Shown one piece after another: positions 6,565 to 32,150 of a stretch of 64,000 nucleotides of DNA. Under the pieces are notes generated by a model. It did no database searches. It was not told the DNA's origin and worked only from the letters and a program-made list of their open reading frames with translations. The stretch comes from Candidatus Latescibacterota bacterium (GTDB lineage: Bacteria; Latescibacterota; UBA2968; UBA8231): NCBI GenBank assembly GCA_965248355.1, contig OZ252098.1:1568001-1632000 (forward strand), written 5' to 3'. The position numbers and the translations under genes are program-made. Positions within the stretch are counted from its first letter, which is position 1, and every line of letters starts with the position of its first letter.

Positions 6565-6656
6565 GACGGTCTTTCAGGTGGTACTTCTGACTTTGAAGAT
6601 GTGCCCGGGAAAAAGAGACATAAGTCCAATATCACCAGACACTAAGGAGAGAACCC

Positions 6657-8681
6657 ATGGCTCTGGTGGACCTTGCACGAAGAATGGCAATAACAGCGGC
6701 ATCGCTGCTGATCCTCTTCGGGGTTTCAGATGCCCAGGAGGAGCGTTTCTCGCGCTACGTAGGCTCCGAGGATCTGGGCCTCAACGACATGGACAGCGGC
6801 GGCAAGCCTTCGACGGCCGCCATCAGTGGCTTGACGGACATCACGGACTATGCCTTCGACGGCTCGGACCTGACCATTCCGTTTACACTTGAGGGGACGC
6901 AAACCGGTTCAGCGACGGTGTGGCTGGTCATCTACACCTCCGGCCAGAAGCCGCCCTTGACGATTGAAGGAGAAGGGCCTCCTCCCCACATCAAGGGCAA
7001 CTACGCCGATCCGGGATGGCATGTCTTCCAAGGGGTGGACTGGCTGGTCTACAGGTCTGACGGCGAGCGCTTTGATGCAGGCGACAACGAAATCGTCTGG
7101 AATGGCCGCGACATGGGCGGCAACGTGGTGGAAAAGGGCTCGTACGATCTCTTCCTGGCGGCCTTCGACGCCGACGCGAGGGCACACATCGTCGGCTACG
7201 CTCCGGGCCGGGGCGGCACGGGAGAAATGCTCATCGTCGATCCCGACGCCGAAACGCTGACGCGTCCCTACGAGTGGGTCGTCGACATGAACAACGACTT
7301 CATCAACAACCCCTCGGCGGCCACGTTCATCGACCGCACCGAAATCCACAATTCGGCTCCAGATGCGGGCGAAATTCCGGTCGGCCGTCACGTGTTCTGG
7401 TGGACGGACAGCGACCGGGAGCTGCCCTTCCACGTCTTCGACATGACCCCGCTCGGTTCGAGCGGCAACATCACCGACGACATGATGACCTATGTCGCCA
7501 ACGGTCAGAACCAGGGCGGTGGGCTGCTCTTCACGGGCACCTACGACCCTGTGGCACAAACGGCCGACGTCAACGAGGACTGGGGCGCGGACCATGGTGC
7601 CGTCAACGGATTCATCGATTACAAGGAGCTGCAGCCCACCCGCAAGTACGCGGTCCAGACCAACCCGGAGAAAACCAAGATTTACACCACCACCGGGATC
7701 GACGGCCTGATCGGCACGGTCGCCGTCTGGGATCTGGCAAGCGGCGAGAATCTCGCCTTGTGGGATCTATCCGAGATCTTCCTGTACGACAACAACGGCA
7801 GCGACCGGTGCGGCGGACCTGGTTGGTCAGGGCGGGACTACGCGGGTCAGCCCCCTGCCGAGGGTTTGACCCTCTCCGGACACCACACCTCGATCGTCAT
7901 GCGCCAGGACTACGATACCGGTGAGATCATGTGGATCAACCGGAACGGCGACGGCTTTGGCGACATGTACGTGCCGAAGACTTTTGGGGAGGAGCCGATT
8001 TACGGCCACACCTCGGGGGACGGCGCCAAGTACGGCATGAATGCGACGAAATGGGGCTGGACCTCCATTTCCCATACCGCCGTGAACTTCACCGATTACG
8101 GGTCCATGTTGGGTGAGGATGGCTCAGGGCTGTTCCTGTTTCAGCCGACGAACATTCCCAGTTCCGTTGCCAATTGGACAATGGTCGTCGACCACGACGA
8201 CAGCGCCTGGGACGGCTTCTACATCAGTGTAGGCGAGAATGACCCCGAGTTCAGATCGAATGACTGGGCGCCGCCCAAGCCCGAGGACGCCATCATCGAT
8301 TACTATTCCTACAAGTATTTCGTCCACCTGCCCTACGATCAGAAGCGGGTGAGCCTGGGCGAGATGCCGACGGCCGTTGCCGAGTTGGGCGGTGCCCTGC
8401 CTGCCAGCGCGGAACTGGGCGATGCCTATCCCAACCCGTTCAATCCCGAGACCACCATTCACTTCTCCCTGCCCTGGGAAGCACCGGTCAAGGTCGAGGT
8501 CTTCAATGACCAGGGCCAGCTGGTGACGACGCTGGTCAACGATCACATGGGTCCGGGGAACTTCTCCGTCACTTGGGACGGCAGAGATGCGAACGGCTCC
8601 GAGGTTGCGAGCGGGGTATACCTCTACAAGATCGAGAGTGTCAACCTGAGGTTGAGCAAGAAGGTCACCTTCCTCAAGTAG
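6657..8681 (+). CDS. Secreted surface protein with an internal FlgD-Ig domain and a C-terminal T9SS type A-like/FlgD-Ig sorting tail
   Basis: Signal peptide, N-terminal IPFTL..IVWNGRDMGGNVVEKGSY, and C-terminal AYPNPFNPETTIHFSLP..TWDGRDANGSEVASGVYLYKI..KKVTFLK. Confidence 0.85.
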   Translation: MALVDLARRMAITAASLLILFGVSDAQEERFSRYVGSEDLGLNDMDSGGKPSTAAISGLTDITDYAFDGSDLTIPFTLEGTQTGSATVWLVIYTSGQKPPLTIEGEGPPPHIKGNYADPGWHVFQGVDWLVYRSDGERFDAGDNEIVWNGRDMGGNVVEKGSYDLFLAAFDADARAHIVGYAPGRGGTGEMLIVDPDAETLTRPYEWVVDMNNDFINNPSAATFIDRTEIHNSAPDAGEIPVGRHVFWWTDSDRELPFHVFDMTPLGSSGNITDDMMTYVANGQNQGGGLLFTGTYDPVAQTADVNEDWGADHGAVNGFIDYKELQPTRKYAVQTNPEKTKIYTTTGIDGLIGTVAVWDLASGENLALWDLSEIFLYDNNGSDRCGGPGWSGRDYAGQPPAEGLTLSGHHTSIVMRQDYDTGEIMWINRNGDGFGDMYVPKTFGEEPIYGHTSGDGAKYGMNATKWGWTSISHTAVNFTDYGSMLGEDGSGLFLFQPTNIPSSVANWTMVVDHDDSAWDGFYISVGENDPEFRSNDWAPPKPEDAIIDYYSYKYFVHLPYDQKRVSLGEMPTAVAELGGALPASAELGDAYPNPFNPETTIHFSLPWEAPVKVEVFNDQGQLVTTLVNDHMGPGNFSVTWDGRDANGSEVASGVYLYKIESVNLRLSKKVTFLK

Positions 8682-8701
8682 GAGGCTCTCAGATGTTTCT
8701 C

Positions 8702-8737
8702 AAGTGCCACCGGTCTGTTGCCGGTGGCACTTTTTTT
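8702..8737 (+). terminator. Rho-independent terminator/attenuator
   Basis: Perfect 12-bp stem aagtgccaccgg/ccggtggcactt with a 7-nt loop, running into a T7 tract (8731-8737), 20 nt after the stop codon. Confidence 0.9.
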
Positions 8738-8783
8738 GCCAAGAGACACCATAGAGACGAATCCCATAGGGAGGTGTGCCAGA

Positions 8784-10919
8784 GTGGACATTGGAAGATC
8801 TCTCCGCGCGGTGGCGCTCCCTGCCGCAGGGCTGTTGCTGGCACTCCACTGGCCGGTGGCTGCGCAGCTTCTCGAACGCGCTCCCATCGATACCTGGGCC
8901 ACCACGACCTACTATCTGGGCTACGCCGAATTTCCGGAGGCGACCAATGGCCGCATCCGCATAGCCGCCGCAGACCGCTATGACCTCTTCCTCAATGGGG
9001 ATCTGGTAGGGCGGGACGACGACCCCGGATCGGCCGAGGTCTACGATGTTCTGTTCAAGAAACGCACCAACATGGTGGCCGTCGTCGTCGGACATGACGG
9101 GACCACCGCCAGCGGCTACGGGCTGTTCTGCGTGCTGGAGGCCGATGGGGTGCTCATGCCGAGTTCCCCCACGGACCGCAGGACACCGTGGTTCTGGACC
9201 GATTTTGCTCTTCCAAACGAAGAGAAGGCCGAGTGGACGGAGCTGAGGCTCAACGAGCTTTCCGATCATGAGCAGGACGGCCAGAGCGTGACCTGGCGAA
9301 CGGTACAGGCCGGTACCCTCGACCCGCACGGATTCCCGGAGTTTGCCCACCTGGATCTCACCAGGGCCCGCAGCATAGCGGGCTTTCCCGGCGGCCTCGA
9401 CGGCAGCCGGGGTGGCCTGCGGCTGCGATCCTTCAAGGGGCAGAACCTCGCCTTCAACACCTTCTCCCGCGAACCCAAGCTCATCGACGGAGATATCGGC
9501 TCCCCGAAGAGCTACGGCAAAGGGGGGCGCGCACTGTTCGAGGAGGTTGAAGTCGACCTGGGGCGCCTGTTTCCAATCAACCGCGTAAGGGTTATCACGC
9601 AGCCCCCGGGGAGTTCCGGAAGCTACGAGGACAACTCGCTGCGTGGATACAGCGTTCTTGTCAGCAAGGACGGGGTCAACTACCTCGGTGTGGGGTCTCA
9701 GAACCAGATCACTGACTTCAACGAGACGGCGGTCGACTTCCCCACCATCATCGCCCGCTACATACGCATGGTGGTCACCGAGTTCGCCAACCGCAACGCC
9801 CTCCCCAAGGTCGGCGAGCTCGAAGTCTTTGGAGAGGGTCTCGATCGGCAGGGAACCTACCTCTCCCCTCCCCTCGATTTCGGTTCCACTGAGCGCAAGA
9901 ATTTCGACCGCGCCTTGCGGTTCGGCGACCCTTCAGCCACCGGGGAGATGGCCCTCCAGTTCCGCAGCGGAGACGATGGCGAGACCTGGAGCGGCTGGTC
10001 GACCTGGAGTCGGGATTCCGAGATTCAGCTCGCCGTGCCTGAACCCCGCCGCTTTCTCCAGTTCCAGGCGCTCATGCGGACATCCGACTCTTTCCAGGGT
10101 CCACAACTGGACAGCCTTGTCGTGCTCTACAGCGGTGCTCCCTTGCCGGCAACCGAAGCGGTAGCCTCAATCGTGCCGCTCCAGGCGCCCATCGGAGAGG
10201 ATGCGACATTCACCTATTCCCTCGAGCTCGAGATCGGCAACCAGGATTCCGGGATCGATCGCCTCGTAATCCTCACCTCGTGGCCGGCCCAGCTGGACAT
10301 CTCAAGCGTCGCCGGGGCCGTCAGCATCGACCTGGACCGAACCTACGCGACCGGGGATTCGCTCGTGATCGCCTTCGATCCCCCTATCGGCTCAGACGTG
10401 GAGATCGAGATTCCCTTCACATCCCGGCTGCTATCCGCGAGCCACACATTCCAGGGGCTGCTGTATGCACCGGGTACCGATCTCGCTCTTTCCGTCCAAC
10501 CGCGGGAAGGAGAGGATCCGCTCACGGGGCTGGCCTATTCGGTGGTCTCGGAGGCGGCGAGCTTCGATCTCCCTATTCTGCAGAATGTGCGCCCTTTTCC
10601 CCCCGTATTCACACCCAACGACGACGGGATCAACGATGGAGTCGGCTTCGGATTCACTCTGGGAAGAGTGTCCGCCGCACCCGTGCGCGTCGAGATCTAC
10701 GCCCTCGACGGCAACCTGGTCCGGACCCTGCCCGAGCAGCGCCTGAGTGCCGGCTATTCCGGGCCCTCCGACAGCGGGCGGGCGACGTTTCACTTCTCCT
10801 GGGATGGACGCGCACAGAGCGGGGACATCCTCTCCCCCGGACTGTACTTGTACCGCCTCGTGGTCGACACGGAGCCCGATCCTGAGATCGCCACCGGGGT
10901 CGTAGCAATCGCGTATTGA
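8784..10919 (+). CDS. Secreted discoidin (F5/8 type C) domain protein with a C-terminal FlgD-Ig/gliding-motility-like tail
   Basis: GGAGG then GTG at 8784, signal peptide, VDLGRLFPINRVRV..SKDGVNY..ARYIRM..ELEVFG, and C-terminal PVFTPNDDGIND..WDGRAQSG..PGLYLYRL. Confidence 0.8.
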   Translation: MDIGRSLRAVALPAAGLLLALHWPVAAQLLERAPIDTWATTTYYLGYAEFPEATNGRIRIAAADRYDLFLNGDLVGRDDDPGSAEVYDVLFKKRTNMVAVVVGHDGTTASGYGLFCVLEADGVLMPSSPTDRRTPWFWTDFALPNEEKAEWTELRLNELSDHEQDGQSVTWRTVQAGTLDPHGFPEFAHLDLTRARSIAGFPGGLDGSRGGLRLRSFKGQNLAFNTFSREPKLIDGDIGSPKSYGKGGRALFEEVEVDLGRLFPINRVRVITQPPGSSGSYEDNSLRGYSVLVSKDGVNYLGVGSQNQITDFNETAVDFPTIIARYIRMVVTEFANRNALPKVGELEVFGEGLDRQGTYLSPPLDFGSTERKNFDRALRFGDPSATGEMALQFRSGDDGETWSGWSTWSRDSEIQLAVPEPRRFLQFQALMRTSDSFQGPQLDSLVVLYSGAPLPATEAVASIVPLQAPIGEDATFTYSLELEIGNQDSGIDRLVILTSWPAQLDISSVAGAVSIDLDRTYATGDSLVIAFDPPIGSDVEIEIPFTSRLLSASHTFQGLLYAPGTDLALSVQPREGEDPLTGLAYSVVSEAASFDLPILQNVRPFPPVFTPNDDGINDGVGFGFTLGRVSAAPVRVEIYALDGNLVRTLPEQRLSAGYSGPSDSGRATFHFSWDGRAQSGDILSPGLYLYRLVVDTEPDPEIATGVVAIAY

Positions 10920-10924
10920 GGCCT

Positions 10925-13609
10925 ATGCGCCATCCCCTCACCCTGATCCTCTGCTTCCTCCTGTGGGCCGTTCCGTCCGGCGGCCAGTTCCTCTCCAGGG
11001 ATACCCGCAAGCTGTGGGCCAACGAGGTGTTCGAGAACTACGGGGCCAACGGGTACCGGGACTACGATTTCGAGGAGGAGAATCGCCGTTTCGACATCTT
11101 CGGAGACCTCCTGATCGACGGCATCGATATCGTCGAATACAGCGAGGTACGCCGCAATGCGCCCGGACAGATAGGCAGCTACGAATCGCGCAGCGACGGC
11201 TACGACAACTTTTTTCAGAAACTCGTCATCGCCGACGAGGGGTTTGGCCGCTGGTCAACGCGGCTGATCATCGGCGAGCACCTGCGCACCGTCTTCACGC
11301 CCATGACCCTGAATCTCCCGAATTTCAACGGGGTCCGGTGGGATGGCTCATCGCGCAAGAGCCGATTCACTTTCATCGCCACGCACCTGAGAGATCCGCT
11401 CATTTTCCACAATCAGCTCGAGGAACGCCGGGTCTTCGGCACGGGTCTGGTAGGCGGACATTGGGAAAGCCAGGTGGGCGACATCCTCAAGATAGGCACG
11501 ACCTACGTCAACGCGCACCGCTTCGACGCCGAGGCCAGTGCCACCCTCAACGGCCTGAAGGGTGATGTTCCGGGCGTGGTCCAGGAGGGCGGGCTGCGCC
11601 GGGTCTTCGTTTTCTTCACCGACGACGCGCCCCACGATGCCGCGCCAGGGGCAACGGTCCACGGATTGACGATGTACGCAGACGGGATGGCCGTGGAACA
11701 GGTGCGAGTGGGGAAGATCGAGCGCATACTCGACCGCATCCCCGTTACCTCCGACCGAAGCAACACCGTCCCGCTGAATCCAAACGATGTGCACTACCTC
11801 CGCCGCAACGGCTCCTGGCTCCCGGCGGTGGTCGAGGCCAGCAACGTCAACTTCATTCCCATCCTGCTGGACCGCATCACGCTGCCGGCGGCGCCGGCTG
11901 GGAGTGGAGCGCCCCTGGTGGCCAATGGCACGGACGTGGTCTTCTACGAGTACGAGGTCCCCCACGGCGCCCGCGACGTCCGCTTCGAGGCGATTCTGGC
12001 CAACGACTACAGCGTCGACGTGGTCGGAGGCATGCAGGTACCCCTCTTCGATTCGGGGACCGACTACGGTGATCTTTTTTACGACTGGAACAATACGTTG
12101 CGAGCCAAGGGCAACCCGGGCAGCAGTTCCAACCTGCGCCGGGTGCACTTCCGCTACGGGCTTCCCACCGGTCTGGAAATACTGGGCTTCGACTTCGAGG
12201 CCGAGATCCTGGGCAGCAGCATCCAGGGCGAATACGCGCGCAGCACGAGATTCCTGAAGACTCCTGCCTCCGGCGGGGCTCGTCACGACCGCAAGAGTTC
12301 GACCTTCCATGTGAACCTCTTGAGATCTCTTGGCTCGAATGCGGAAGTGGGTCTGGAATGGTTCGATGTTCCATCCGACTACACCACCGATTTCCCCCTC
12401 TTTCGGGACTCGTCCCAGGGGTTTCCGGTGGGCGGCAAAGTCTATGATCGCTTTGCCCTGGTCGAGGACAACGACGATCTGGATACCTGGCCGGACCGGG
12501 CGGAACACGGGGACCCCCTTGCCTTCTACTCTCGCTCAACGGCAGAGGGCTACGGGGTCTTCCCGGGGTTGGACCTGAACCGGGACGGGCGGCTGGACCT
12601 CAACGTGGGCGGCAATGCCTATACACCTTTCCTGGGCTACTACATCGATCCCCCCGAGCTCGTCTACGGTGATGATTTCAACAACAACGGAATCGCCGAC
12701 CTGCGAGAGAACGACAACCTGCCGGACTACCTCTACCCCTTGGACCATCGCGGCTTGCACGCCTTCGTCTCCGTGAAGCCCACAGCGCGTTCCCTCGTGC
12801 GTTTCGGGGGATACCGCATGGGTCAGCCGATTCTGGGATTGTCCAGCCACGTGGCCTACGTGGAAGGCCAATACGAGCGCAAATGGAAGGAGTCCGGGCA
12901 CCTCCGTTTGAACCACCGGCTCAAATGGGCGGAGGATGATATTCCCAACACCATCTACCAGTTCGTCGATGAAGAGAGGCTGCCGACCGGTCTGCTCCGT
13001 AGGAGCCGCTACGAGCTGCAACCGGACCTGCTGCAGGATCGGGACAGCATCGACAACCTGACCCATCTCGAGGCCAGGGTGAAGGTCCTGCCCGGTCTGA
13101 ATATTCACAATGTCCTCTCATTCACGCACATCGACCTGGGGGGGGCGCCCCTCGATGATCCGCTCACGGCGGCGCCGGGTACGATCACCCACTTTTCAAT
13201 GGTCAACAAGGCGGACTACACCTGGCATTGGAACCCCTTCAAGATCATTACGCAGTTCAAGCACATCTTCCAGCGCAGCAAGTTCCCCGAGCGCGTCATT
13301 GCGGACAGACAGACGCGTTGGCTCATTCCCATTGTCCGCATGGACTACCAGGTGGGCCCCAACACAAGCCTCAAGACCGGCGTTCAAGGCCTTCCCCTGC
13401 TGCCGGAGAGATCCCTCGATCCCACCGCCAGTCCGGAGAGGAATTTCCACCGCCGTACCTGGACCGCCTTTCTGCAGAACAGAAGCAACCACCGCGGCTA
13501 TGACTTGACTTTGTTGTTCGGAACGTACCGCACCCATACCCGCTATACGGGCTCCCCGCGGCCGTCCCTGGGCTACGTGGAATACTTCTTCAAGGTCTTC
13601 ATAGGGTGA
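10925..13609 (+). CDS. Large exported hypothetical protein, paralogue A (putative outer-membrane beta-barrel with Ca-binding loops)
   Basis: Signal peptide. Motifs FTPMTL..NGVRWD, VEDNDDLDTWPD, GVFPGLDLNRDG and YGDDFNNNGIADLREND are shared with the next two genes. Ends YFFKVFIG. Confidence 0.8.
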   Translation: MRHPLTLILCFLLWAVPSGGQFLSRDTRKLWANEVFENYGANGYRDYDFEEENRRFDIFGDLLIDGIDIVEYSEVRRNAPGQIGSYESRSDGYDNFFQKLVIADEGFGRWSTRLIIGEHLRTVFTPMTLNLPNFNGVRWDGSSRKSRFTFIATHLRDPLIFHNQLEERRVFGTGLVGGHWESQVGDILKIGTTYVNAHRFDAEASATLNGLKGDVPGVVQEGGLRRVFVFFTDDAPHDAAPGATVHGLTMYADGMAVEQVRVGKIERILDRIPVTSDRSNTVPLNPNDVHYLRRNGSWLPAVVEASNVNFIPILLDRITLPAAPAGSGAPLVANGTDVVFYEYEVPHGARDVRFEAILANDYSVDVVGGMQVPLFDSGTDYGDLFYDWNNTLRAKGNPGSSSNLRRVHFRYGLPTGLEILGFDFEAEILGSSIQGEYARSTRFLKTPASGGARHDRKSSTFHVNLLRSLGSNAEVGLEWFDVPSDYTTDFPLFRDSSQGFPVGGKVYDRFALVEDNDDLDTWPDRAEHGDPLAFYSRSTAEGYGVFPGLDLNRDGRLDLNVGGNAYTPFLGYYIDPPELVYGDDFNNNGIADLRENDNLPDYLYPLDHRGLHAFVSVKPTARSLVRFGGYRMGQPILGLSSHVAYVEGQYERKWKESGHLRLNHRLKWAEDDIPNTIYQFVDEERLPTGLLRRSRYELQPDLLQDRDSIDNLTHLEARVKVLPGLNIHNVLSFTHIDLGGAPLDDPLTAAPGTITHFSMVNKADYTWHWNPFKIITQFKHIFQRSKFPERVIADRQTRWLIPIVRMDYQVGPNTSLKTGVQGLPLLPERSLDPTASPERNFHRRTWTAFLQNRSNHRGYDLTLLFGTYRTHTRYTGSPRPSLGYVEYFFKVFIG

Positions 13610-16395: not shown

Positions 16396-16401
16396 GGAAG
16401 C

Positions 16402-19400
16402 ATGACGAGCCACTTGCGATTCAGCTTGTTCACCGCGTCGGTCCTCCTCCTTCTCGCGGGCGCCCTGCGAGGGCAAGAGGAGACGCAGCAGGGGCCGGAA
16501 CTGGTTGACCAGCTGCCGTCGCGCATTCTGCCGGACCAACCTTTCCTAGGCCGCTTCGGCGAGGCCCCCTACAGAAACTACGGGTTGGAGAACTACTCCC
16601 GCCGGCCTGAATTCACCAGCAATCTGGCATATCACTACAACACCATGGGTGATCCTCTCATATACGGCACCCGGGCGGTGAACTGGGTCGAGCGCCGCGG
16701 ACTTGGCGTGCAACGGGGGTATTCCGCCATAGGCGAGACCGGAGGTCACGGCGAGACGGGAAACGCCTACCAGCGTCTCTTCGATCACGTACTGATCGGC
16801 ACCGATGGCACGGACTCGTGGCAGGCCAAGTTCATCTACGGGGATGAAGTTCGCTCGTCGCTCACACCCCTGACGATGAAGCTGTCCAACATGAACGGTC
16901 TTCGCGTCGACGTGGGCACCGACAACGACAGTTTCTCGGCTTTGTTCTCAACCCTTCCCTGGTCCCGCAACTCGGCTCAGGGCGTCACCCCGGACGGCGG
17001 ACCCAGCGCCAGGGTCCCCACCATGATGCTCTCCGCCCACTACGAACGCAAGGTCGGCTTCCTCAACTTCGGAGGCACCTTCCTCAACGTGCACCAGTAC
17101 GAGCCGCTCATGTCAAGCGAGTTCGAAACCCTGCAGGGCGTGGCCGGAGCCGTTCAGACCGCGCCGGCCATGGTCGCACTCCGCATCCTGGACGACTCCC
17201 CACAGGATGGCAGGGGGGGACCGGTCTTGCACGATGTCAAGGTGTACGTAAACGGCGAGCCGCGCCCCGAGCTGGAGCCCTTTGTCGTCCACCTCCACAA
17301 ACGCGGTGACGAGCGGCAGATCTACGTGGCGCCCCTCCTGAACTCGGGGGAGCGCTTTGGCCTGCCACCGCGGCCCGAGGCCAACAATTACCAGACCGTC
17401 AATGCAGGCGGCCTGTTCAGCACCTATGAAGCCTACATAAACACGGCCCGCATCGATCCCCAGGTGTTCTACCGGGGCTACGAGTTTCCCTTCTTCATCG
17501 ACCACCTCCTCTATCGCGACTTCAAGCTCCACGGGCCCGACTACGTCGTGGATGCCGAGAACGACAGGACGGTGCACACCGAGTTCGCCCATGAGCTGGC
17601 CGAGCCCTCCGGGGACTTCCTCGGCTTGTACACCATGACAGATCTGCCCCAGGCCTTCGACGGTGAGACCTATGGTGTTCTCTACGTGGACCTCGAGTCC
17701 CTTCGCCAGTTCATCACCTCGGTGGAAATCGAGCTGACCCTGGCCAACGACTACCGCGTGGAGATGTCCCAGATCCCCATGGCCCGGTCGACCGAGCGTC
17801 CGCCGGTTGACAACCATTCCCAGCGCTACCGCTACGCTTCCTTTTTCCGCACCGTGGCCCGCGCCGGCGGCAATCCCCAGGACGGGGTCCCCAGGAAGGT
17901 CAGGATCAAGGTGGGAGCGCCCACGGGAATGCGGCTCACAAGCCTCAACGCCAACGGCGTATTCAAGGGTTTCCAGATCAATGCCGAACTCGCGGGGAGC
18001 AGCCAATACCATCAGTACATCAGCGGCCCTCCGGGACCGCGTCTGCCTCAGGATGCCCTTCCCATCAACGCCCTCGAGCGGGCCAAGAGGCCCGGAGCCC
18101 GGCACACCATAAGCGACCGGTCCTACTACGTTACCGTGCAGCGGGATTTCAAGCGCTGGGGATTGGGCGGCGAGTGGTTCTCCATGGGACCCCTCTACAC
18201 GACCGAATTCCGCAGCTTCATCGCCGCCGACGAGTTCAATCTCCAGGGCTTCCCGATCCCCTTCAACAACACCCTCATCCACCGGATGGTCGAAGACAAC
18301 GACGACAACGACCGCTACCCGGACAGCTGGTACGTCTTCTTCGACAAGAAGCAGGCCCAGACGGACATCGATGGGGTCTTCCCGGGACTGGATGCGGACA
18401 GCGACGGGATTCCGGACACCAACCGCAACCTGAACCAGGAGCCGGACTACCTGGAACCCTTCCTCATGTACGGCGCGGACCCCCAGGTCTTCGACTACGG
18501 CCTCGATCTCAACCACAACGACTACATCGACTCCCGGGAAAACGACTGGGAGGCGGATCTGCCGTACGATCCGGATCTGAAGGGTCTGCACCTGTACGGA
18601 AGCTACAAGCCGCTGCCGGGCCTGAAGCTGACGCTGGGTTCCATGGATGCCCAACAGAACGCGGGCGCCCTGCCCAGCGAGGTCCTCTACACCCGCCTGG
18701 GCTACGCTCGGAGCGTACCGACCATCGGGCGCTTCTTCAGCGAGCTCTCCGTGGAGCGGGTACGCGATGGCGTGGCGGATCCCTTGAGTGTGTACAGTGA
18801 CCGGGTGCTCACCGAGGCCGAACAGAACGAGATCTTCTCCATCAACCAGCGCAACCAGCAGATAGCCCCCTTCCGCGAGGAGATCCGCGAGGATCCGCTG
18901 AACTACAAGAACAGCACGTTCACGCGGCTCTTCACCGAGGCTCATTGGCATTTGGTGCCGCATCTCAACATGCACAACAAGGTCAAGGTAGAGGTCAACC
19001 ATCAGCACGGGGGAGAACTCTTCGACAAGTCCGAGCAGGAAGGGGACCGCCGGTCGCGGTGGACCATGGCCCACAAGATCGACTACGATTGGAAGATCCG
19101 GCCCCGCGTCAGCTTGTTCTGCGGGTTCAAGTTCCGCTACCACAAGGAGTGGCAGCGCAGCCAGGGGCTGCCCGCGGTGCACGAGCGGCACCTGATTCCC
19201 CTCATGAAGCTCGAGTATCGACTTACCGGGCGGACCCGCTTCCAATTCGGGGTTCAGGGGATCACTTCCAGGCTTCCTTACTCGGTAACCGACTTCGTCC
19301 GTCCCGAAGAGGACTTCCAGCAGCGCGACACCGTGTTCATGATGACGAATCTGTCCAGGTATTTCGGTTACATCATCTCCTCCAATGCCGGATTGCGGTT

Positions 19401-19500
19401 TCGACTGAAGGAGTTCAGCGATCCGGCTGTTGATCAGACCCGAAGTGAGCGCTTCACGGCCGTTTTCATCAACGCCATTCTGGGCTTCGAGGACGACTGA
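16402..19500 (+). CDS. Large exported hypothetical protein, paralogue C
   Basis: Motifs LTPLTM..NGLRVD, VEDNDDNDRYPD, GVFPGLDADSDG, YGLDLNHNDYIDSREND. Ends VFINAILGFEDD. Confidence 0.8.
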   Translation: MTSHLRFSLFTASVLLLLAGALRGQEETQQGPELVDQLPSRILPDQPFLGRFGEAPYRNYGLENYSRRPEFTSNLAYHYNTMGDPLIYGTRAVNWVERRGLGVQRGYSAIGETGGHGETGNAYQRLFDHVLIGTDGTDSWQAKFIYGDEVRSSLTPLTMKLSNMNGLRVDVGTDNDSFSALFSTLPWSRNSAQGVTPDGGPSARVPTMMLSAHYERKVGFLNFGGTFLNVHQYEPLMSSEFETLQGVAGAVQTAPAMVALRILDDSPQDGRGGPVLHDVKVYVNGEPRPELEPFVVHLHKRGDERQIYVAPLLNSGERFGLPPRPEANNYQTVNAGGLFSTYEAYINTARIDPQVFYRGYEFPFFIDHLLYRDFKLHGPDYVVDAENDRTVHTEFAHELAEPSGDFLGLYTMTDLPQAFDGETYGVLYVDLESLRQFITSVEIELTLANDYRVEMSQIPMARSTERPPVDNHSQRYRYASFFRTVARAGGNPQDGVPRKVRIKVGAPTGMRLTSLNANGVFKGFQINAELAGSSQYHQYISGPPGPRLPQDALPINALERAKRPGARHTISDRSYYVTVQRDFKRWGLGGEWFSMGPLYTTEFRSFIAADEFNLQGFPIPFNNTLIHRMVEDNDDNDRYPDSWYVFFDKKQAQTDIDGVFPGLDADSDGIPDTNRNLNQEPDYLEPFLMYGADPQVFDYGLDLNHNDYIDSRENDWEADLPYDPDLKGLHLYGSYKPLPGLKLTLGSMDAQQNAGALPSEVLYTRLGYARSVPTIGRFFSELSVERVRDGVADPLSVYSDRVLTEAEQNEIFSINQRNQQIAPFREEIREDPLNYKNSTFTRLFTEAHWHLVPHLNMHNKVKVEVNHQHGGELFDKSEQEGDRRSRWTMAHKIDYDWKIRPRVSLFCGFKFRYHKEWQRSQGLPAVHERHLIPLMKLEYRLTGRTRFQFGVQGITSRLPYSVTDFVRPEEDFQQRDTVFMMTNLSRYFGYIISSNAGLRFRLKEFSDPAVDQTRSERFTAVFINAILGFEDD

Positions 19501-19505
19501 GACCC

Positions 19506-22500
19506 ATGACCCTGTTCCTTGTAGTTACCGCGCTCACCCTGGGGGGGACCTTCTTTGCCTCTCGAGTGCCCAATGAAGGTGACATGGTCAACACCTTCCG
19601 GGAGGCCCAGCGATTCTATGCCGAGGGCGCCTACGATCAGGCCATCGCCCAGTATGAGGCCGTCTCGAAGATACGCAGCCGGGCCCTGCGTTCCGAGAGG
19701 ATCCAGGTAGCCGTGGGTCAGGGGGAGTTTCCCCTGCAGGAGGCTGCCGACTATCAGATCGGCAACTCCTACGCCAAGGTCTACGAAGACCACGCCAGGG
19801 GCGCGGAAGACGAGCGCCGCGGGAGCCGGCGCGCAGAACTCGAGACGAAAGCCGACAGCGCCTTTGCGGCTGCAGCGAGTGCCTTTCAGCGGGTTATCGC
19901 CGGCTCCACCAGCGAGGTGTTGAAGGTGCAGGCCTACGGAAGGCTCATCGACCTCAATTTCAAGGCCAGGAGGTACCCCGAGGTGATCGAGGCGGCCCGG
20001 GCCCTGAGCGCGACCTATCCCGAGGATCCGCGGGTCGTCGTGGGCTACTACAACACCGGGTGGGCCCTGTACAAGATGAAGGACTACGACGGGGCCATCG
20101 ACGCCTTCGAAGCACTCCTCGCCCGGTTCCCCACCGGTTATCGGGCGGACCGCAGCCTCTTCCAGATCGGCGAGTGCTACCTGGAAACGGGCCGGTACGA
20201 GCAGGCCATGGACGCCTACCGTCAGTTGATAGACCGCCAGCAGGTCCAGGATCTGACCGAGGTGGAACTGCGGCGGATACAGCGAGAGAAGATCGCCGGT
20301 CTCGTGGATGAGACCGCCCTGGAGCTGGCGGCCAAGGCACAGATTCGCATCGGCACCTGCTATGCGCGGCTGGGCCGCTATGAGGAGGGGTTGAGCGCCT
20401 ATCGGCAGGTGATCACTCTCTTCGGCTCGGAGCGGAACCTGGTTGAGGAGGCTTACCTGCGCATGGCAGACCTTCACCAGGAGACGGGCGACTTCGATGC
20501 CAGCATCCGCACCTATCGGGAGGCTATCGATCAGTCCGCCCACCGCACGCTGAGGGCCCGAATTCAGTACGCGCTGGCAGAGAGCTATTTCTCGCGGGCG
20601 AGGTATGACGCTGCGGTCCGGGAGTATCGAGTCTACCTCGATGGGTATGGCGATATCGCACTGGCGGCCGGTTTCACCCAGGGACGCGTTCGCTATCGCA
20701 TCGGGAGCGCCTACCAGCAACTGGCCGACAGCGCGGAGGGCCAGGACAGGCCGGCGGTGGACGACTGGTTGAAGCGGGCCATCGCCCAGTACGACACGCT
20801 GTGCTCGGACGAGACCTCGCCCTACTTCCTGGACGCGCGCTTCAACCGGGCCCTGGCCTTCCAGTCTCTTGGCACGGACAGCTCCCTGGCCTTGGCAGAG
20901 GAGAAGTTCGGAGCGATCGTCCAGGAAGCGGTAGACCAGGGCTACGTCCAGCGCGCCCTGGTGCAACTGAGTGAGCTCCACTATGAGCGAGGCCAATACG
21001 ACCAGGCGGCGCGGACCTCGCAGAAGCTCCTGGATGCCTGGCCCGACAGCGACTACAAGGACAAGGCGTACATGCGCCTCGCCCTCTCGCACCAGGCCGC
21101 GGGCGATCCCGAGCGCGCCCTCCCCGCCTTTCTGGAGGTGCCCGAGAGCTCTCCCCTCTTCGCCCGCGCGCGCCTCGGTGGAGGACACGGTCTGCTGAAC
21201 GCGGGCCGATTCTCCGAGGCCGCCCGGGTCCTGGCGGAGGGTTTGTCGAGGGTAGATGACGACGTGCAGCGAAGCAGTTTCAACTACCTCCTCGGTCAGG
21301 CTTACGGCGGGCTGGGAGAGAACTCCAGGGCTGTAACCCACTTCTCCGCGGCCCTCGAGTATCCGGTGGCGCCGGAACTGGCCCAGGCCCTGCGTTTCAG
21401 CCGCGGCAATGCCGCTTTCTCCATAGAAGCGTATGACCTTGCCGAGAAGGACTTCGCCTGGATCGTGGACCACGTGCACGACCAGGAGAAAATCCGGTCC
21501 GCCAAGGACGCTCTGGCCCTGATCTATGTGAGGCAGAACCGCGGGACCGAAGCCGTGCGGACCCTGGGCGACATGGCCGCCGAAGCCACGAGTCCCGAAG
21601 AGCGAGCCCATCTCCTGAGTCGCCTGATGGACTTGCACTACCAGGAGAACAACCACACGGAGACGATCGCCCTGAGCCGGCGGTTGATCGACCTCGACTT
21701 CGCAGATGAGTTGAGCCCGGGTCAGGCCTACCGGCGCAAAGAGAAGGCCTACTTCCTCATGGGCGATGCGCTGGCGCGGCTCGACCGCAGCGCCGAAGCC
21801 GCCGAGGTCTTCACCACGGCCCTGCAACGCTTCCCCGAGTCCTACTTCGCCACGGATATGCGGCTGGCGCTAGGTGTCCACTATTTCGAGCAGGGCGAGC
21901 TCGAGCGGGCCAAGGGGGTCTTCGTCGACCTCGTCAAAGCCGACTCCCGCCCCGACCACCGGCTCATGGCGGGCTTCTATCTGGCCAATACCCAATACAG
22001 CTTGAGGGAGTTCGACCGGGCCCGGACCTCCTTCGACCAATTGCTGCGGGACTACCCGGAGGCGCAGGCCCTGCCGGATCTCCTCTTCGGCCTCGCGGAG
22101 AGCCATTACCAGCTGGGAGACTTCGAGGCGGCCATCCACCACTACCAGCGCATTCTCGCGGAATTCCCTCGGGATGCCACGGCCGCTCGTTCGCTGTACA
22201 ACACGGCCTGGTGTCTCATCGAACTCAAGAGGCAGGACGAGGCGATGGAGGCCTTTCGCACCCTCCTCGAACGGTATCCGCGAAGTGAGTTCGCGTCCTC
22301 GGCCCAGTTCACGCTGGCCGACGATGCCTACAACCGCGGGTTCCATGAAGAGGCCATGAGGACCTACCGCCTCGTTCAGGAGCGATTCCCCGGAGATCCC
22401 CTGGCGGCCCAGGTGCCGCGCCTTCTCTCCGAGATCACCGAGGCCATCGCGTACAAGCACTACGAGCAGGCTCTCGCGTTGATGAATTCGGCCAGGACGG

Positions 22501-22763
22501 CCGAAGAGGAGACCCGGCGGAAGGAATACTTCGAGCAGGCCATAAGCTCGTTCCAGGAGATCAGCGCCCGCTATCCCGGCACGGAGAGCGAACTGGGTGC
22601 GCTGAGCAATATGGGAGTCTGCCTGGAAGAACTGCGGCAATGGCGCGAGGCCGTGGCGGTGTACGATCAGGTGATCGAGATGTACAATGAAAAGCGGGCG
22701 AGCAAGGAAGTCTTCCAGTTCGTCAAGGCCCACAAGGACTGGATCGTCACAACGAGGCTGTGA
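19506..22763 (+). CDS. Giant TPR-repeat protein (BamD/CpoB-like repeats) with an N-terminal membrane anchor or signal
   Basis: 1085 aa of repeats such as YDGAIDAFEALLARFPTGYRADRSLFQIGECY and FEAAIHHYQRILAEFP. Confidence 0.9.
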   Translation: MTLFLVVTALTLGGTFFASRVPNEGDMVNTFREAQRFYAEGAYDQAIAQYEAVSKIRSRALRSERIQVAVGQGEFPLQEAADYQIGNSYAKVYEDHARGAEDERRGSRRAELETKADSAFAAAASAFQRVIAGSTSEVLKVQAYGRLIDLNFKARRYPEVIEAARALSATYPEDPRVVVGYYNTGWALYKMKDYDGAIDAFEALLARFPTGYRADRSLFQIGECYLETGRYEQAMDAYRQLIDRQQVQDLTEVELRRIQREKIAGLVDETALELAAKAQIRIGTCYARLGRYEEGLSAYRQVITLFGSERNLVEEAYLRMADLHQETGDFDASIRTYREAIDQSAHRTLRARIQYALAESYFSRARYDAAVREYRVYLDGYGDIALAAGFTQGRVRYRIGSAYQQLADSAEGQDRPAVDDWLKRAIAQYDTLCSDETSPYFLDARFNRALAFQSLGTDSSLALAEEKFGAIVQEAVDQGYVQRALVQLSELHYERGQYDQAARTSQKLLDAWPDSDYKDKAYMRLALSHQAAGDPERALPAFLEVPESSPLFARARLGGGHGLLNAGRFSEAARVLAEGLSRVDDDVQRSSFNYLLGQAYGGLGENSRAVTHFSAALEYPVAPELAQALRFSRGNAAFSIEAYDLAEKDFAWIVDHVHDQEKIRSAKDALALIYVRQNRGTEAVRTLGDMAAEATSPEERAHLLSRLMDLHYQENNHTETIALSRRLIDLDFADELSPGQAYRRKEKAYFLMGDALARLDRSAEAAEVFTTALQRFPESYFATDMRLALGVHYFEQGELERAKGVFVDLVKADSRPDHRLMAGFYLANTQYSLREFDRARTSFDQLLRDYPEAQALPDLLFGLAESHYQLGDFEAAIHHYQRILAEFPRDATAARSLYNTAWCLIELKRQDEAMEAFRTLLERYPRSEFASSAQFTLADDAYNRGFHEEAMRTYRLVQERFPGDPLAAQVPRLLSEITEAIAYKHYEQALALMNSARTAEEETRRKEYFEQAISSFQEISARYPGTESELGALSNMGVCLEELRQWREAVAVYDQVIEMYNEKRASKEVFQFVKAHKDWIVTTRL

Positions 22764-22770
22764 GTAGAGA

Positions 22771-24009
22771 ATGAACTCCAGGCCCGATCGTTTCAGCTCT
22801 GCCAGCGACGGCATCGACCGGCGCAGATTGCTGGCCGAGACCCGGGGGCTAGTGGCCGTCGGTCTGTTGATCAGCATGGGGCTTCTGGGGGGGGCTTTCC
22901 TCTACTTCATAGCAGTGCCCAAGGAGAGGAAGGCCCCGCCGCCGCCGATCGCCGAGCTCGTCATCCGCAAACCCAGGGCCTCGAAGCCGTTCCAACTCAA
23001 GCGCCAGCGCCTGGCGCCGCGAGCCCTGATCAGAAGAGTGAGCGCCCTGAAGCCCCGCCTGGCCATGGCCGCGCCACGCCTCAGCGGTGCGTCCATGTTC
23101 GGACGGATTGAGACCTTCGACTACGCCGTCGAGACCGATGTTCAGATCAACCTCCAGACCGGCCCCGTCGAGTTCTCCGCGGCCCGGGTCACCGGTACGA
23201 AGGAGCCGGAGAAGCGCATCGCCATGCACGAGGAACTGCTCGACCTGGATGCGCTCGATACCGGGAAATACAAGGGGCTCATCATTCAGGATCCGACGGA
23301 CCGTCGCAAGGTCAAGGGGTTCGTCTACCTCGGTACGGCGTGGGCCACCGATCTGGAGCCGATCTTCGACAGCGCCGCCAAGGCGATTCCCAATCTCGTC
23401 GATGCGGTCAATGCCCTGACCGGCATCACCGCAAAGGTGGATGAGCACCTGTTCGTCGATTCCCAGGAGCTCTTTCGGACACCCTTCGTCTACATCACCG
23501 CGCAGGAAGCCTTCGAACTGACGGATCGGGAGAAGACCAACCTCGAGAAATACATGCGCCAGGGAGGGTTCGTCTTTGCCGACAACGCCAACGCCGTCGT
23601 CGAATTCAGTCAGGCCGAGGCATCCCTGCGTCAGATTTTCCGAGACGCCCTGGGCTCACAAGGTCAATTCCGGCCCATACCCAACACCCATCCCCTGTAC
23701 CACACATTCTACGATTTTGACGGCCCTCCGGTCGGATCGGAGCTGGATGTCCCCTCCGACCAGGAGCAGTGGTCCATCTCCTACCGCATCGTCGCTCAGC
23801 ACTCCTATCACCTTGAAGGCGTGTTCCTGGGTGACCGTCTCGTTGCTCTCTACTCGGACAAGGGATACGTCCACAAGTGGGCGGAGAACTACGGCAACGA
23901 GCCGCAGTTGCGCTTCGGCATCAACGTGGTCGTCTTCGCTCTGACCCAGGAAGGCTCGATCGCGCAGCAGCAGATCGACTATTTCAGTGAAGGCGGTGGA
24001 GAACAGTGA
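22771..24009 (+). CDS. Membrane-anchored DUF4159 domain protein with a Pro/Lys-rich linker
   Basis: N-terminal TM helix, KAPPPPIAELVIRKPR linker, and C-terminal PFVYIT..NLEKYMRQGGFVFAD..HPLYHTFYDF..FGINVVVFALT. Confidence 0.75.
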   Translation: MNSRPDRFSSASDGIDRRRLLAETRGLVAVGLLISMGLLGGAFLYFIAVPKERKAPPPPIAELVIRKPRASKPFQLKRQRLAPRALIRRVSALKPRLAMAAPRLSGASMFGRIETFDYAVETDVQINLQTGPVEFSAARVTGTKEPEKRIAMHEELLDLDALDTGKYKGLIIQDPTDRRKVKGFVYLGTAWATDLEPIFDSAAKAIPNLVDAVNALTGITAKVDEHLFVDSQELFRTPFVYITAQEAFELTDREKTNLEKYMRQGGFVFADNANAVVEFSQAEASLRQIFRDALGSQGQFRPIPNTHPLYHTFYDFDGPPVGSELDVPSDQEQWSISYRIVAQHSYHLEGVFLGDRLVALYSDKGYVHKWAENYGNEPQLRFGINVVVFALTQEGSIAQQQIDYFSEGGGEQ

Positions 24010-24088
24010 ACCTGTCACGCCGTCTCCGCGGATCGCCGCATCATCGAGGCCCCGATAGAACATCCTCTGCCGAAAAGGAGTAGCCGGA

Positions 24089-24826
24089 ATGTGGGAGATC
24101 ATAAAGAGCGGCGGCCCTCTCATGGTGCCCCTGGTCGGATGCGCCGTGTTGTCCCTCGCCTTCATCATCGAGCGCTTGTGGGTGTTCAGCCGCCTGCCCG
24201 GCCGCACCCAGGCCCAGGAGGACCTGCAACGGTTCGAGTCCGCACTCGTCCGTGGAGGTGAGGACGCCGTGGTGGAGGAGTGCAACCAGGGGAAGGGGGT
24301 GCTCAACTACGTCTTTGCCTCCCTGTTGACGCGTCACAATACCCTCATGCTGGAGCAACGGGAATTCCAGGAGACGCACGAGGAGATCATCCAGCTTTCC
24401 GAGGCCGGCGGCGGCGGGCCGATGGGGCGTTTCATCGAGATGCGGCAGGAATTGGCCGACTTGAAGGAAGAGCTCGTGATCGAGACCGAAAAGGCCTCGC
24501 GGCTGTACCTGGGAAAGCACCTGCCTGTCTTGAGGATGATAGGGAACATCAGTCCCCTGTTGGGGTTGCTGGGGACGATCCTCGGAATGATCGTTGCGTT
24601 CGAGTCCATCGCCGCGGCCGGTACCGGAGACCCGAAGGTGGTGGCCGACGGGATCTCCCAAGCCCTGGTCACGACGGCGAGCGGGTTGATCGTCGCGATC
24701 CCCACGATCGTGGCCTACGGGTACCTGGCGCGCAGGGCCGAGTTGTTCCTTGACCAGGTCGAGGTCTTCGGTCACGCCTTTTCGAGCACCCTGATCAGTG
24801 CCGGGCAGCGAAAGAAGAAGGACTAG
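24089..24826 (+). CDS. MotA/TolQ/ExbB proton channel protein
   Basis: MWEIIKSGGPLMVPL..ERL and ISPLLGLLGTILGMIVAF..GISQALVTTASGLIVAIP. RBS AAGGAG. Confidence 0.93.
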   Translation: MWEIIKSGGPLMVPLVGCAVLSLAFIIERLWVFSRLPGRTQAQEDLQRFESALVRGGEDAVVEECNQGKGVLNYVFASLLTRHNTLMLEQREFQETHEEIIQLSEAGGGGPMGRFIEMRQELADLKEELVIETEKASRLYLGKHLPVLRMIGNISPLLGLLGTILGMIVAFESIAAAGTGDPKVVADGISQALVTTASGLIVAIPTIVAYGYLARRAELFLDQVEVFGHAFSSTLISAGQRKKKD

Positions 24827-24898
24827 TCCTTCATCCTGGGAGTGCAGGAGAGTCACCACGGATCCGGGAGTGGAGCGCCTCTCCCTCCACCACGCGCG

Positions 24899-26068
24899 AT
24901 GCGAAGCATGGCGGCCTGCATCCTCCGGCAAGCCCTCCTTCCGGCCCTGCTGCCGGCGCTCGCCGCCGCGGCGGCGGCCGGCGCCGGCAGCGCCGACTGG
25001 CCCTCCTTCCGGGGCGGCCCCGGACTGACGGGACAGGCCGGGGCGCCGCTGCGCGAGCCCCTGCGCCTGGCCTGGTCCCTCGACACGTCGGCCTCGGCCG
25101 ACTCCGGCCGCTACGGCGGCATCGAGTCCACGGCGGCCGTCATCGGCGAGACCGCCTACGTGGGCACCCTCGACGGGCGGCTGCTGGCGGTGAGTCTGAC
25201 GGAGGGCGGCATCCTGTGGAGCTACGACGCCGTGGCCGAGATCAAGTCCTCGCCCGCGGTGGCCGGCGGGGTGGTCTACGTGGGTGACGAGGACGGCTTC
25301 CTGCACGCCGTGGACGCCGCCTCGGGCGCCCGCCGCTGGCGCTTCACCGCCGGGGGGGCGATGACGGCCCCGCCCACGGTGGCCGGGGGCCGCGTGCTGG
25401 CGGGCAGCTACGACAACTCCCTCTACTGCCTGTCGGCGTCCGACGGCCGCCTCCTGTGGCGCGCGGCCACGGGCGGGTTCGTGCACGGCGCCGCGGCCGT
25501 GGCCGGGACCACGGCGGTCAGCGCCGGCTGTGACGGGATCCTGCGGCGCCTGGACCTCCAGAGCGGCCAGGAGCTGGCCTCCGTCGATCTGGCCACCTAT
25601 GCGGCCGCCAGCTGCGCCGTGGCCGGAGGGCGCGCCTACCTGGGCACCTTCGGCGACGAGGTTCTCGCCGTCGACCTGGAGAGCGCCCGGGTGGTGTGGC
25701 GCTACCGGCCCGCCGGGGGCCGCTTTCCCTTCTACGCCTCGGCGGCCGTGGCCGGGGACCGCGTCATCGCCGGGGGCCGCGACAGCCGGGTGCACGCCCT
25801 CGACGCCGATACCGGGGAGGCCCTGTGGATCTTCGCCGCCGGCGCCCGCGTCGACGCCTCCCCCGTGGTCGCCGGCGAGCGGGTCTACGCCGCGTCCATG
25901 CGGGGCGTCCTGCACGGGCTGGACCTTGCCACGGGCGCCGAGATGTGGACCTTCGAGGGGGCCTCCGCCTTCGCCGCCTCCCCCGCCGTGGCCTCCGGCC
26001 GGCTGGTGATCGGCGACACCGACGGCGTGCTCCACTGCTTCGCCGCCGCGCCCATGGAGACGGAATGA
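24899..26068 (+). CDS. PQQ-binding-like (BamB-type) beta-propeller protein
   Basis: Signal peptide, DWPSFRG, and repeated SSPAV..VYVG..DG.LHAVDAASG..RWRF blades. Confidence 0.88.
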   Translation: MRSMAACILRQALLPALLPALAAAAAAGAGSADWPSFRGGPGLTGQAGAPLREPLRLAWSLDTSASADSGRYGGIESTAAVIGETAYVGTLDGRLLAVSLTEGGILWSYDAVAEIKSSPAVAGGVVYVGDEDGFLHAVDAASGARRWRFTAGGAMTAPPTVAGGRVLAGSYDNSLYCLSASDGRLLWRAATGGFVHGAAAVAGTTAVSAGCDGILRRLDLQSGQELASVDLATYAAASCAVAGGRAYLGTFGDEVLAVDLESARVVWRYRPAGGRFPFYASAAVAGDRVIAGGRDSRVHALDADTGEALWIFAAGARVDASPVVAGERVYAASMRGVLHGLDLATGAEMWTFEGASAFAASPAVASGRLVIGDTDGVLHCFAAAPMETE

Positions 26069-27432: not shown

Positions 27433-27446
27433 AGGAGTCACCCACC

Positions 27447-28706: not shown

Positions 28707-28710
28707 GGTC

Positions 28711-32146: not shown

Positions 32147-32150
32147 AGCC

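Follow-up and report, generated by a model that had tools for sequence, protein, structure and literature searches.

A run of eight genes in the genome of a Candidatus Latescibacterota bacterium (GenBank assembly GCA_965248355.1, contig OZ252098.1) is one copy of a conserved, multicopy, and apparently undescribed envelope module. The genes occupy positions 6657-24826 of the 64,000-nucleotide stretch that we analyzed (positions 1,568,001 to 1,632,000 of the contig, forward strand; hereafter, the window, whose numbering is used below). They encode two exported proteins with tails resembling those of type IX secretion systems (T9SS), three large paralogous proteins predicted to be outer-membrane barrels, a giant tetratricopeptide repeat (TPR) protein, a membrane-anchored protein ending in a domain of unknown function (DUF4159), and an ExbB-type channel subunit. 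All eight genes are on the + strand with intact reading frames, and where neighbors meet they overlap by as much as 4 bases or are separated by as much as 79. An earlier reading of this DNA from the sequence alone (hereafter, the sequence-only reading) had described these eight co-oriented genes as a candidate undescribed envelope machine, and both the gene run and its standing as such a module were borne out. As far as we searched, the module is not described in the literature. We tentatively propose, with a probability of roughly 0.4, that it is a capture-and-uptake machine for complex sugars, similar to Ton/Sus systems and built from new parts.

The genome (5.50 Mb, one contig, guanine-plus-cytosine [GC] content of 0.689) contains 29 barrel open reading frames by our own gene calls, among which two pairs are fragments of one gene each. 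One of these two genes appears to be split by a Mutator-family transposase gene (L041:7301-11342; genome positions 2469301-2473342), at a locus where TPR, DUF4159, and a number of tailed FG-GAP proteins are encoded as well. Five copies of the module are full (M1 to M5, of which M4 is that of the window) and share one gene order: a gene-1-like protein, a gene-2-like protein, three barrels, usually TPR, and then DUF4159. The sister copies add a small DUF5683 membrane protein, a protein of ~120 amino acids (aa), a lipoprotein (X), a protein of ~310 aa (Y), and an ExbB-ExbD-ExbD set. In M2, the end of X weakly resembles TonB_C (20.1 bits), and searches with X, Y, and the 118-aa protein returned nothing in Pfam at E ≤ 5. 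The ExbB-ExbD-ExbD set directly follows the DUF4159 region in M3, in M5, and in an orthologous locus of the congeneric genome G065, while M1 and M2 have no adjacent ExbB. Other loci of the genome hold one or two barrels paired with gene-2-like proteins.

The barrel family is present in 94 of 151 sampled genomes of the phylum, including all 63 genomes of the window's family, and is missing from every sampled genome of two sister families (30 and 19 genomes). When 1.84 billion representative proteins were searched with a profile, the search retrieved 1152 barrel clusters at E ≤ 0.001 (378 at E ≤ 1e-30), and a scan of species-representative genomes found 606 relatives, from which 71 loci were kept. 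By the phylum labels as given in the records of these metagenome-assembled genomes, the relatives are mostly Latescibacterota, joined by Gemmatimonadota, Zixibacteria, KSB1, Zhuqueibacterota, Handelsmanbacteria, “Cytophagia,” and Myxococcales. Fifty-one of the 71 loci span at least 20 kb and were scored with hidden Markov models (HMMs) from this genome's copies; because these loci are the top-scoring ones and often closely related, the resulting counts are not independent. Barrel, gene-2-like protein, TPR, and DUF4159 occur jointly in 42 of the 51 loci, and the parts taken singly are also frequent (gene-2-like protein, 47; DUF4159, 46; TPR, 45; X, 40; gene-1-like protein, 37). ExbB was scored in 12 of the 51; in the triplet forms it lies beyond the 10-kb flank. 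A one-barrel form, in records labeled Zixibacteria, KSB1, and Zhuqueibacterota, has the order gene-2-like protein, barrel, TPR, ExbB, ExbD, DUF4159 (once or twice), X, and Y, and in one distantly related family within the phylum the TPR gene is directly followed by ExbB. Conservation of the neighborhood, on which the sequence-only reading had staked its proposal, extends to records with other phylum labels, in which the same parts occur.

Genes 3 to 5 (10916-13609, 13606-16395, and 16402-19500, respectively, all on the + strand) encode proteins of 897 to 1032 aa with signal peptides, and, at 27 to 29% mutual identity over the full length, they are the paralogs that they had been taken for. None matches a Pfam or NCBIfam family at E ≤ 0.01, and none matches the NCBIfam model of PorP/SprF (TIGR03519). 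Against PDB sequences, a single-sequence search with the barrels gave no match and a profile search gave only noise at E ≥ 0.09. An AlphaFold2 model of gene 4, which ends in a C-terminal Phe, was built from a 36-row alignment (predicted local distance difference test score [pLDDT], 76.9; predicted template modeling score [pTM], 0.77). It consists almost entirely of long beta-hairpins, with roughly two dozen membrane-length strands as counted from the secondary-structure line, and includes a confident inserted beta domain (positions ~236-390) and a low-confidence, acidic Asp/Asn-rich stretch (~496-625). The description of these proteins as barrel-like therefore holds for the gene modeled, which has the form of a large beta-barrel. 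A Foldseek search of PDB with the gene 4 model retrieved only large outer-membrane barrels (SlpA, MtrB, LptD, TonB-dependent receptors, and SprA) at template modeling (TM) scores of 0.1 to 0.3; the best match was SlpA (8ae1; E = 3e-8, TM = 0.19), and TonB-dependent receptors scored 0.30 or lower. VIA-align, which is independent of Foldseek, likewise returned only generic barrels (Z of 9 to 14, root-mean-square deviation of 5 to 12), with FhaC, BamA, TamA, and porins at Z of 12 to 14. The SlpA_C model (PF21620, cutoff of 35 bits) gave subthreshold scores of 20.1 and 24.5 bits on two homologs, no match on gene 4 at E ≤ 5, and none on the window's own proteins. In the ESM Atlas, the barrels fall near Latescibacterota clusters without names, and the nearest named neighbor, a DUF6029 receptor-like protein (0.89), is a lead only. 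Because the structure matches are to generic outer-membrane barrels and no family model matches, we predict that genes 3 to 5 encode outer-membrane beta-barrels outside the known families; Pfam, NCBIfam, and Foldseek agree with the earlier statement that they are neither TonB-dependent receptors nor SprA. The “Ca-loop” that had also been ascribed to them stands as a motif: the Asp/Asn-rich stretch VDDNDDxD ... DxDxDG is conserved in the barrels, but it matches no family and falls where model confidence is low, and calcium binding is a reading of the motif only. Polysaccharide export of the BcsC/PelB type was dropped as a candidate, the resemblance being one of generic barrels.

The three barrels of a module copy belong to three distinct lineages. 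We reconstructed a FastTree phylogeny of 70 barrels. Seventeen triplets entered it, of which 5 belong to this genome and 12 to related loci, together with a further 10 barrels of this genome and 9 from loci in which only a single full-length barrel was scored. The 17 barrels of position 1, the class of gene 3, all form one clade (support of 100), and the barrels of position 2 (gene 4) and position 3 (gene 5) form two further clades (support of 100 each) with one foreign row apiece. Barrels under other phylum labels branch outside the position clades, and each window barrel is sister to its counterpart in locus L076. Because positions 1, 2, and 3 cluster across the 17 triplets, the three lineages appear to be separate and old, with a triplication that would predate the multiplication of the module and a gene order kept since. 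Such a kept order of old position classes argues for three nonredundant subunits.

The remaining three genes of the module encode a putative path from the outer membrane to a proton motor. Gene 6 (19506-22763, +) encodes the 1085 aa of TPR that had been read from the sequence, preceded by an N-terminal hydrophobic segment. Pfam and NCBIfam models identify YbgF/CpoB-type units (233 bits in 7 stretches) and BamD-like units, whereas the PorW/SprE model remains below its cutoff (92.4 versus 250 bits); the protein is predicted to be a periplasmic scaffold. Gene 7 (22771-24009, +) encodes an inner-membrane anchor with one membrane helix, a basic/proline linker, and DUF4159 at residues 200-391 (PF13709; 106.1 bits, cutoff of 25.9). 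The label “TonB-like” fits this architecture of helix, linker, and DUF4159, but not its end, where no TonB_C domain is present. The 59 DUF4159 arms that we compared all possess the helix and the domain, along with a linker in which RKPR...K.F.LK is conserved. The motif S-x3-H, by which TonB and TolA are anchored in partnership with ExbB and TolQ, occurs in the membrane helix of 21 of the 59, including all one-barrel forms. Gene 8 (24089-24826, +) encodes the predicted MotA_ExbB channel, an ExbB/TolQ-type proton-channel subunit (PF01618; 96.1 bits, cutoff of 22.9) with three hydrophobic segments, which falls below the cutoffs of the TolQ and ExbB equivalog models. Elsewhere in the genome, a classic short DUF4159 protein (228 aa, 229 bits) is encoded beside DUF4175 and a tailed propeller protein (L042:593-4669; genome positions 2126593-2130669), which gives DUF4159 a second, motor-free context in the same genome. 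We dropped a Bat/MoxR context for the DUF4159 of the module, given that this classic form, beside DUF4175, sits elsewhere. In the literature that we searched, the Pfam paper alone mentions DUF4159 by name.

The first two genes encode the tailed proteins, which the sequence-only reading had regarded as cargo. A sigma-70-like promoter match (6535-6564, +) lies upstream of gene 1; it is the sole match within 5900-25400, where shuffled sequence averages 3.5, and is a consensus match only. Gene 1 (6657-8681, +) encodes an exported protein with a type-A T9SS tail (NPFNP motif) that exceeds the cutoffs of FlgD_ig (53.6 bits, cutoff of 27), Por_Secre_tail (PF18962; 27.8, cutoff of 27), and TIGR04183 (32.9, cutoff of 23). 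Its body is probably a beta-propeller, as suggested by a weak match to an arylsulfotransferase propeller (16.9 bits) and by its nearest ESM Atlas clusters, a lead only, among whose tailed proteins are some that carry NHL or propeller repeats. Directly 3′ of gene 1, a terminator-like hairpin with a 13-bp stem and a T run (8702-8732, +) overlaps the first possible start of gene 2 (8718-10919, +). Because 8718 falls within this hairpin, the real start of gene 2 is probably later, in the range from 8718 to about 8811. Gene 2 encodes an exported protein with a discoidin/CBM32-type domain (F5_F8_type_C; 43.2 bits, cutoff of 28.2). Its structure model (pLDDT, 87.4) is an all-beta chain of beta-sandwich domains that matches multisandwich proteins and the lectin domain of galactose oxidase, with TM scores all 0.19 or lower, and the structure search found no catalytic fold matching the whole protein. 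We infer that gene 2 encodes a nonenzymatic, lectin-type surface binder.

Two FlgD-Ig/T9SS-like tails had been read at this locus; that of gene 1 is confirmed above cutoffs, while that of gene 2 is subthreshold only (FlgD_ig, 20.1 bits; CHU_C, 17.5; TIGR04131, 18.6, cutoff of 35). The gene 2 tail carries the motif FTPN(G/D)DGIND, and F(T/S)PNGDG(I/V)ND is common to gene 2 and its relatives. Among 19 gene-2-type tails, the type-B model (TIGR04131) recognizes 18 at E ≤ 0.01, none of which reaches the cutoff, and the type-A model recognizes only 5; CHU_C scores on such tails range from 17.5 to 28.7 bits. We refer to these tails as type-B-like.

The sequence-only reading had proposed that the locus is a proton-driven system for exporting FlgD-Ig-tailed proteins or assembling them at the surface and had left open a T9SS elsewhere in the genome. 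The genome does encode SprA (TIGR04189), PorU, and a PorV-family barrel (608, 556.7, and 246.5 bits, respectively), each above its cutoff and far from the locus, and FlgD_ig matches number 118 genome-wide, mostly distant from the module loci. Because these T9SS proteins lie elsewhere and the tails are spread across the genome, the locus is not a general exporter of tailed proteins. One further FlgD_ig tail in the window belongs to a DUF2330 protein (47299-48141). What survives of the proposed link is restricted to one tail class. An HMM of the gene-2-type tail, run on all open reading frames of the genome, separated matches cleanly into those of at least 65 bits and those below 50 bits. Of the 29 strong matches, 28 lie no more than 13.2 kb from a barrel gene; the distance is at most 7 kb for 27 of them and at most 100 bp for 14. 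Among the 75 weak matches, 62 have the type-A NPF(N/S) motif and only 8 are within 15 kb of a barrel gene, 5 of these being gene-1 homologs of the full copies. The strong tail matches of genomes G012, G006, and G015 (one in each) also adjoin barrels, and of 13 in genome G009, 8 are within 11 kb of barrels, 2 at 22 to 25 kb, and 3 far away. Type-B-like tails are therefore genomically tied to barrels, and FlgD-Ig tails as a whole are not.

This linkage parallels that of Bacteroidota, in which, according to one report, proteins with type-B C-terminal domains bind PorP-like barrels (PMC9143113). The module barrels could accordingly be the cognate outer-membrane partners that anchor or export the type-B-tailed protein, with TPR, DUF4159, and ExbBD powering its delivery or release, an explanation close to the earlier proposal but narrowed to one tail class. 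It is favored by the linkage within and across genomes, and the module shares with the Bacteroidota system a type-B-like tail encoded beside its own barrel, the combination of a proton motor with TPR, and the presence of SprA, PorU, and PorV in the genome. The explanation also agrees with the failure to find the Bacteroidota components. No PorP/SprF match (TIGR03519) exceeded the cutoff in this genome and four genus mates, and neither GldL nor GldM matched in this genome, in searches without a positive control, so that absence is not shown. The sole TIGR03519 match in the genome (16.8 bits) is at a PorV-like gene, one weak GldM match was found among the 151 genomes of the phylum, and a GldK candidate was rejected, as it matched through a generic FGE-sulfatase part only. 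However, the module barrels belong to a different and far larger family, about three times the 292-position PorP-family model, and come in threes, and the module motor is of the ExbB/ExbD type rather than GldLM/PorLM. Genome G003, which belongs to a distant family, has many barrels; at one of its loci a triplet lies after DUF4159, and a sulfatase-like gene is downstream (L063/L064; G003:C2:764001-800000). No gene-1-like or gene-2-like gene is near the triplet, nor is a type-B-like tail found genome-wide. Barrels thus occur there without such tails, and a lectin partner is not universal. Anchoring alone would also fail to account for a dedicated motor and uptake-type neighbors, and we consider this explanation somewhat unlikely. 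None of the literature that we searched joins Latescibacteria with type IX secretion, and the parts of the sources available on T9SS, Fibrobacteres, Gemmatimonadetes, and PorM contain nothing on its distribution outside Bacteroidota.

The genes around the module, a sugar ABC transporter among them, lean, circumstantially, toward uptake. In M1, a sugar-binding protein and two permeases are encoded between DUF4159 and ExbB, and beside the copies are a GlcNAc-2-epimerase-family gene, CBM9, DUF4838, a PcRGLX-like lyase, and FG-GAP/ASPIC proteins. Within ~10 kb of three of the five full copies are genes for DUF6785/DUF6784 integral-membrane proteins (window 3048-4973, − strand; L149:3584-5482; L043:11552-13501), adjoined by a DUF4838 or glycoside-hydrolase-like gene in two of the three cases; the link is weak, and the protein is a possible associated inner-membrane component.

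Because the copies are many and diverged, the partner is of lectin type, the neighbors are of uptake type, and a precedent exists in Fibrobacter, we favor uptake of complex sugars over the other explanations. The precedent is a Fibrobacter succinogenes run (FSU_2396-2403; OmpA/TPR/TPR/ExbB/ExbD/ExbD/TonB) that reportedly rises on cellulose, and for which its authors propose Ton-driven cellodextrin uptake (PMC6851124). Like the module, it is a run of the Fibrobacterota-Chlorobiota-Bacteroidota (FCB) group that joins an outer-membrane protein, TPR, and ExbBD, with proteomics linking it to polymer degradation; it differs in having a TonB-family and an OmpA-family protein, and the likeness drawn is one of gene order. 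In the part available of the one relevant text joining Latescibacter and ExbB, classic TonB uptake is described, not the module. The module also resembles the Ton/SusC-SusD systems of Bacteroidota, with which it shares ExbB (and two ExbD in the sister copies), an inner-membrane arm that crosses the membrane once and has a proline/basic linker, large barrels paired with surface proteins of glycan-binding type, and many diverged copies beside carbohydrate genes. It differs from them in that the barrels come in triplets, the arm ends in DUF4159 rather than TonB_C, the surface partners bear T9SS-type tails and are not lipoproteins, and a 1085-aa TPR protein is a fixed part.

In the mechanism that we propose for uptake, the proteins of genes 1 and 2 would be exported by the SprA/PorV/PorU pathway encoded elsewhere and reach the cell surface, where gene 2 would dock onto the barrels through its type-B-like tail. 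The three barrels would work together as a hetero-oligomer. The giant TPR protein, together with the DUF4159 arm anchored in the membrane, would span the periplasm and couple the barrels to the ExbB/ExbD proton motor, which would gate the uptake of captured polymers. The window copy, lacking ExbD and two accessory genes, may borrow from sister copies or work less well.

Several observations weigh against this mechanism. Genes 3 to 5 have no match to Plug or TonB_dep_Rec (PF07715 and PF00593), while PF00593 matches 22 other places in the genome. DUF4159 is the only Pfam match of gene 7; TonB_C (PF03544) matches two places in the genome, neither within the window, and the genome's one canonical TonB_C gene adjoins a separate ExbB-ExbD-ExbD set. 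The S-x3-H motif is not found in gene 7 or its clade among the 59 arms, and no ExbD follows gene 8 or is found in the window. The lack of type-B-like tails in G003 counts here as well. The glycan context is circumstantial in a genome where such genes seem abundant.

A motor of the ExbBD type could instead move or tension the barrels together with lectin-like adhesins, as an adhesin platform in the manner of Myxococcus Agl-Glt or the SprB/SprF gliding track, or as a tether similar to Tol-Pal. In Myxococcus, the Agl-Glt and Nfs systems combine a single TolQ-like protein with two TolR-like ones and also have TonB-like arms, periplasmic TPR, several barrels, and a surface adhesin. The module would parallel them in its parts list: a TolQ-like channel, two TolR-like proteins in the sister copies, a membrane-anchored arm, YbgF/CpoB-like TPR units, outer-membrane barrels, and adhesin-like surface proteins. 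Agl-Glt, however, is a single-copy system for motility or spore-coat assembly with much smaller barrels, whereas five diverged copies and many partial ones suit substrate diversity better than one motility or tether system, and Pfam and NCBIfam find no peptidoglycan-binding domain in the eight proteins. The best Foldseek match, the trimeric envelope connector SlpA of Deinococcus/Thermus, together with the two subthreshold SlpA_C homologs, also points toward a tether, and a trimeric assembly would suit three paralogs; the differences from SlpA are the low TM score, the lack of an SlpA_C match on the window proteins, and their lack of an SLH domain. For movement, one report describes how a moving periplasmic track drives outer-membrane proteins in Bacteroidota (PMC12635249). 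Overall, we regard a platform or tether as quite improbable.

The copy in the window is trimmed relative to its relatives. Within the genus, its DUF4159-ExbB part has an orthologue in G065 only, where the order is DUF4159, X, Y, ExbB (245 aa), ExbD, and ExbD, and locus L076 encodes DUF5683, a ~120-aa protein, DUF4159, X, and Y. By this comparison, the window copy has lost X, Y, and both ExbD genes. Its GC content is 0.623, compared to 0.658 to 0.671 in the sister copies and 0.689 in the genome. The gene after gene 8 encodes a PQQ-type propeller, at which GC rises from ~0.62 to ~0.71; of 10 genomes of the genus, this one alone has the ExbB-propeller junction, and four other genomes have the propeller gene elsewhere, without an adjoining ExbB. 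The region from 24842 to 31208 (GC of 0.71 to 0.73) encodes two PQQ-type propellers, a radical SAM/HemN_C protein, an AMP-binding enzyme, and a FAD halogenase-like protein. The missing genes, the lowered GC, and the unique junction would all suit a decaying or silent duplicate, a state compatible with uptake, anchoring or export, and adhesion alike. Intact frames throughout argue against decay, as does the fact that M1 and M2 likewise lack an adjacent ExbB.

RNA evidence also bears on decay. In a sponge metatranscriptome library, pieces match genes 1, 2, 4, 5, 6, and 8 with 1 to 10 differing letters per 185- to 616-letter piece (3/494, 10/616, and 3/352 for gene 1), and the bacterium is probably sponge-associated. 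The pieces come in small share from a single RNA run stored as contigs and indicate presence in an RNA library only; such contigs give neither operon structure nor expression level, uncovered stretches are uninformative, and DNA carry-over is possible. Overall, we consider decay of the window copy very unlikely. Word depth of the RNA contigs is 7 to 47 on gene 1 (window 6780-8680) and 0 to 1.8 on genes 2 to 8, although contig depth cannot rank genes. Together with the hairpin at 8702-8732, this far higher depth gives no more than a hint that gene 1 is transcribed apart from genes 2 to 8.

Other features of the window lie outside the module. A Thoeris-like pair (31316-32642, GC of 0.585 to 0.64) consists of a ThsA Macro-domain gene (142.8 bits) followed by a ThsB TIR-like gene (90 bits). 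A region resembling a defense island (34293-43344) encodes a C-5 cytosine methylase, HATPase_c_3, Z1, DUF4420 (PD-(D/E)XK-like), and an AIPR abortive-infection protein, and at 60536-62427 a WelO5-like halogenase gene adjoins a fatty-acid desaturase gene.

To our knowledge, the systems in which protons drive work at the outer membrane are a handful, namely, Ton, Tol, T9SS/gliding, and Agl-Glt. The motor of the module is recognizable, no Pfam or NCBIfam model covers the barrel family, and a DUF forms the end of the arm. Lineages that are widespread and uncultured carry the module repeatedly, with up to many copies in one genome. Should it take up polymers, it would be a separately evolved counterpart of the utilization loci of Bacteroidota and would alter the annotation of carbon use in these phyla. 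If it anchors or moves type-B-tailed proteins, it would show how T9SS-type cargo is dealt with where searches found neither the motor of Bacteroidota nor PorP partners. A bolder conjecture, which we hold to be unlikely, is that candidate phyla around Bacteroidota possess an unrecognized proton-driven trans-envelope machine, in which ExbB/ExbD, the DUF4159 arm, and TPR drive hetero-trimeric barrels that carry type-B-tailed lectins, replacing GldLM and PorP/SprF where none were found; if true, it would be a second, independently built way of powering cell-surface proteins. Either way, a testable role is now at hand for DUF4159 and for about 1150 unnamed protein clusters.

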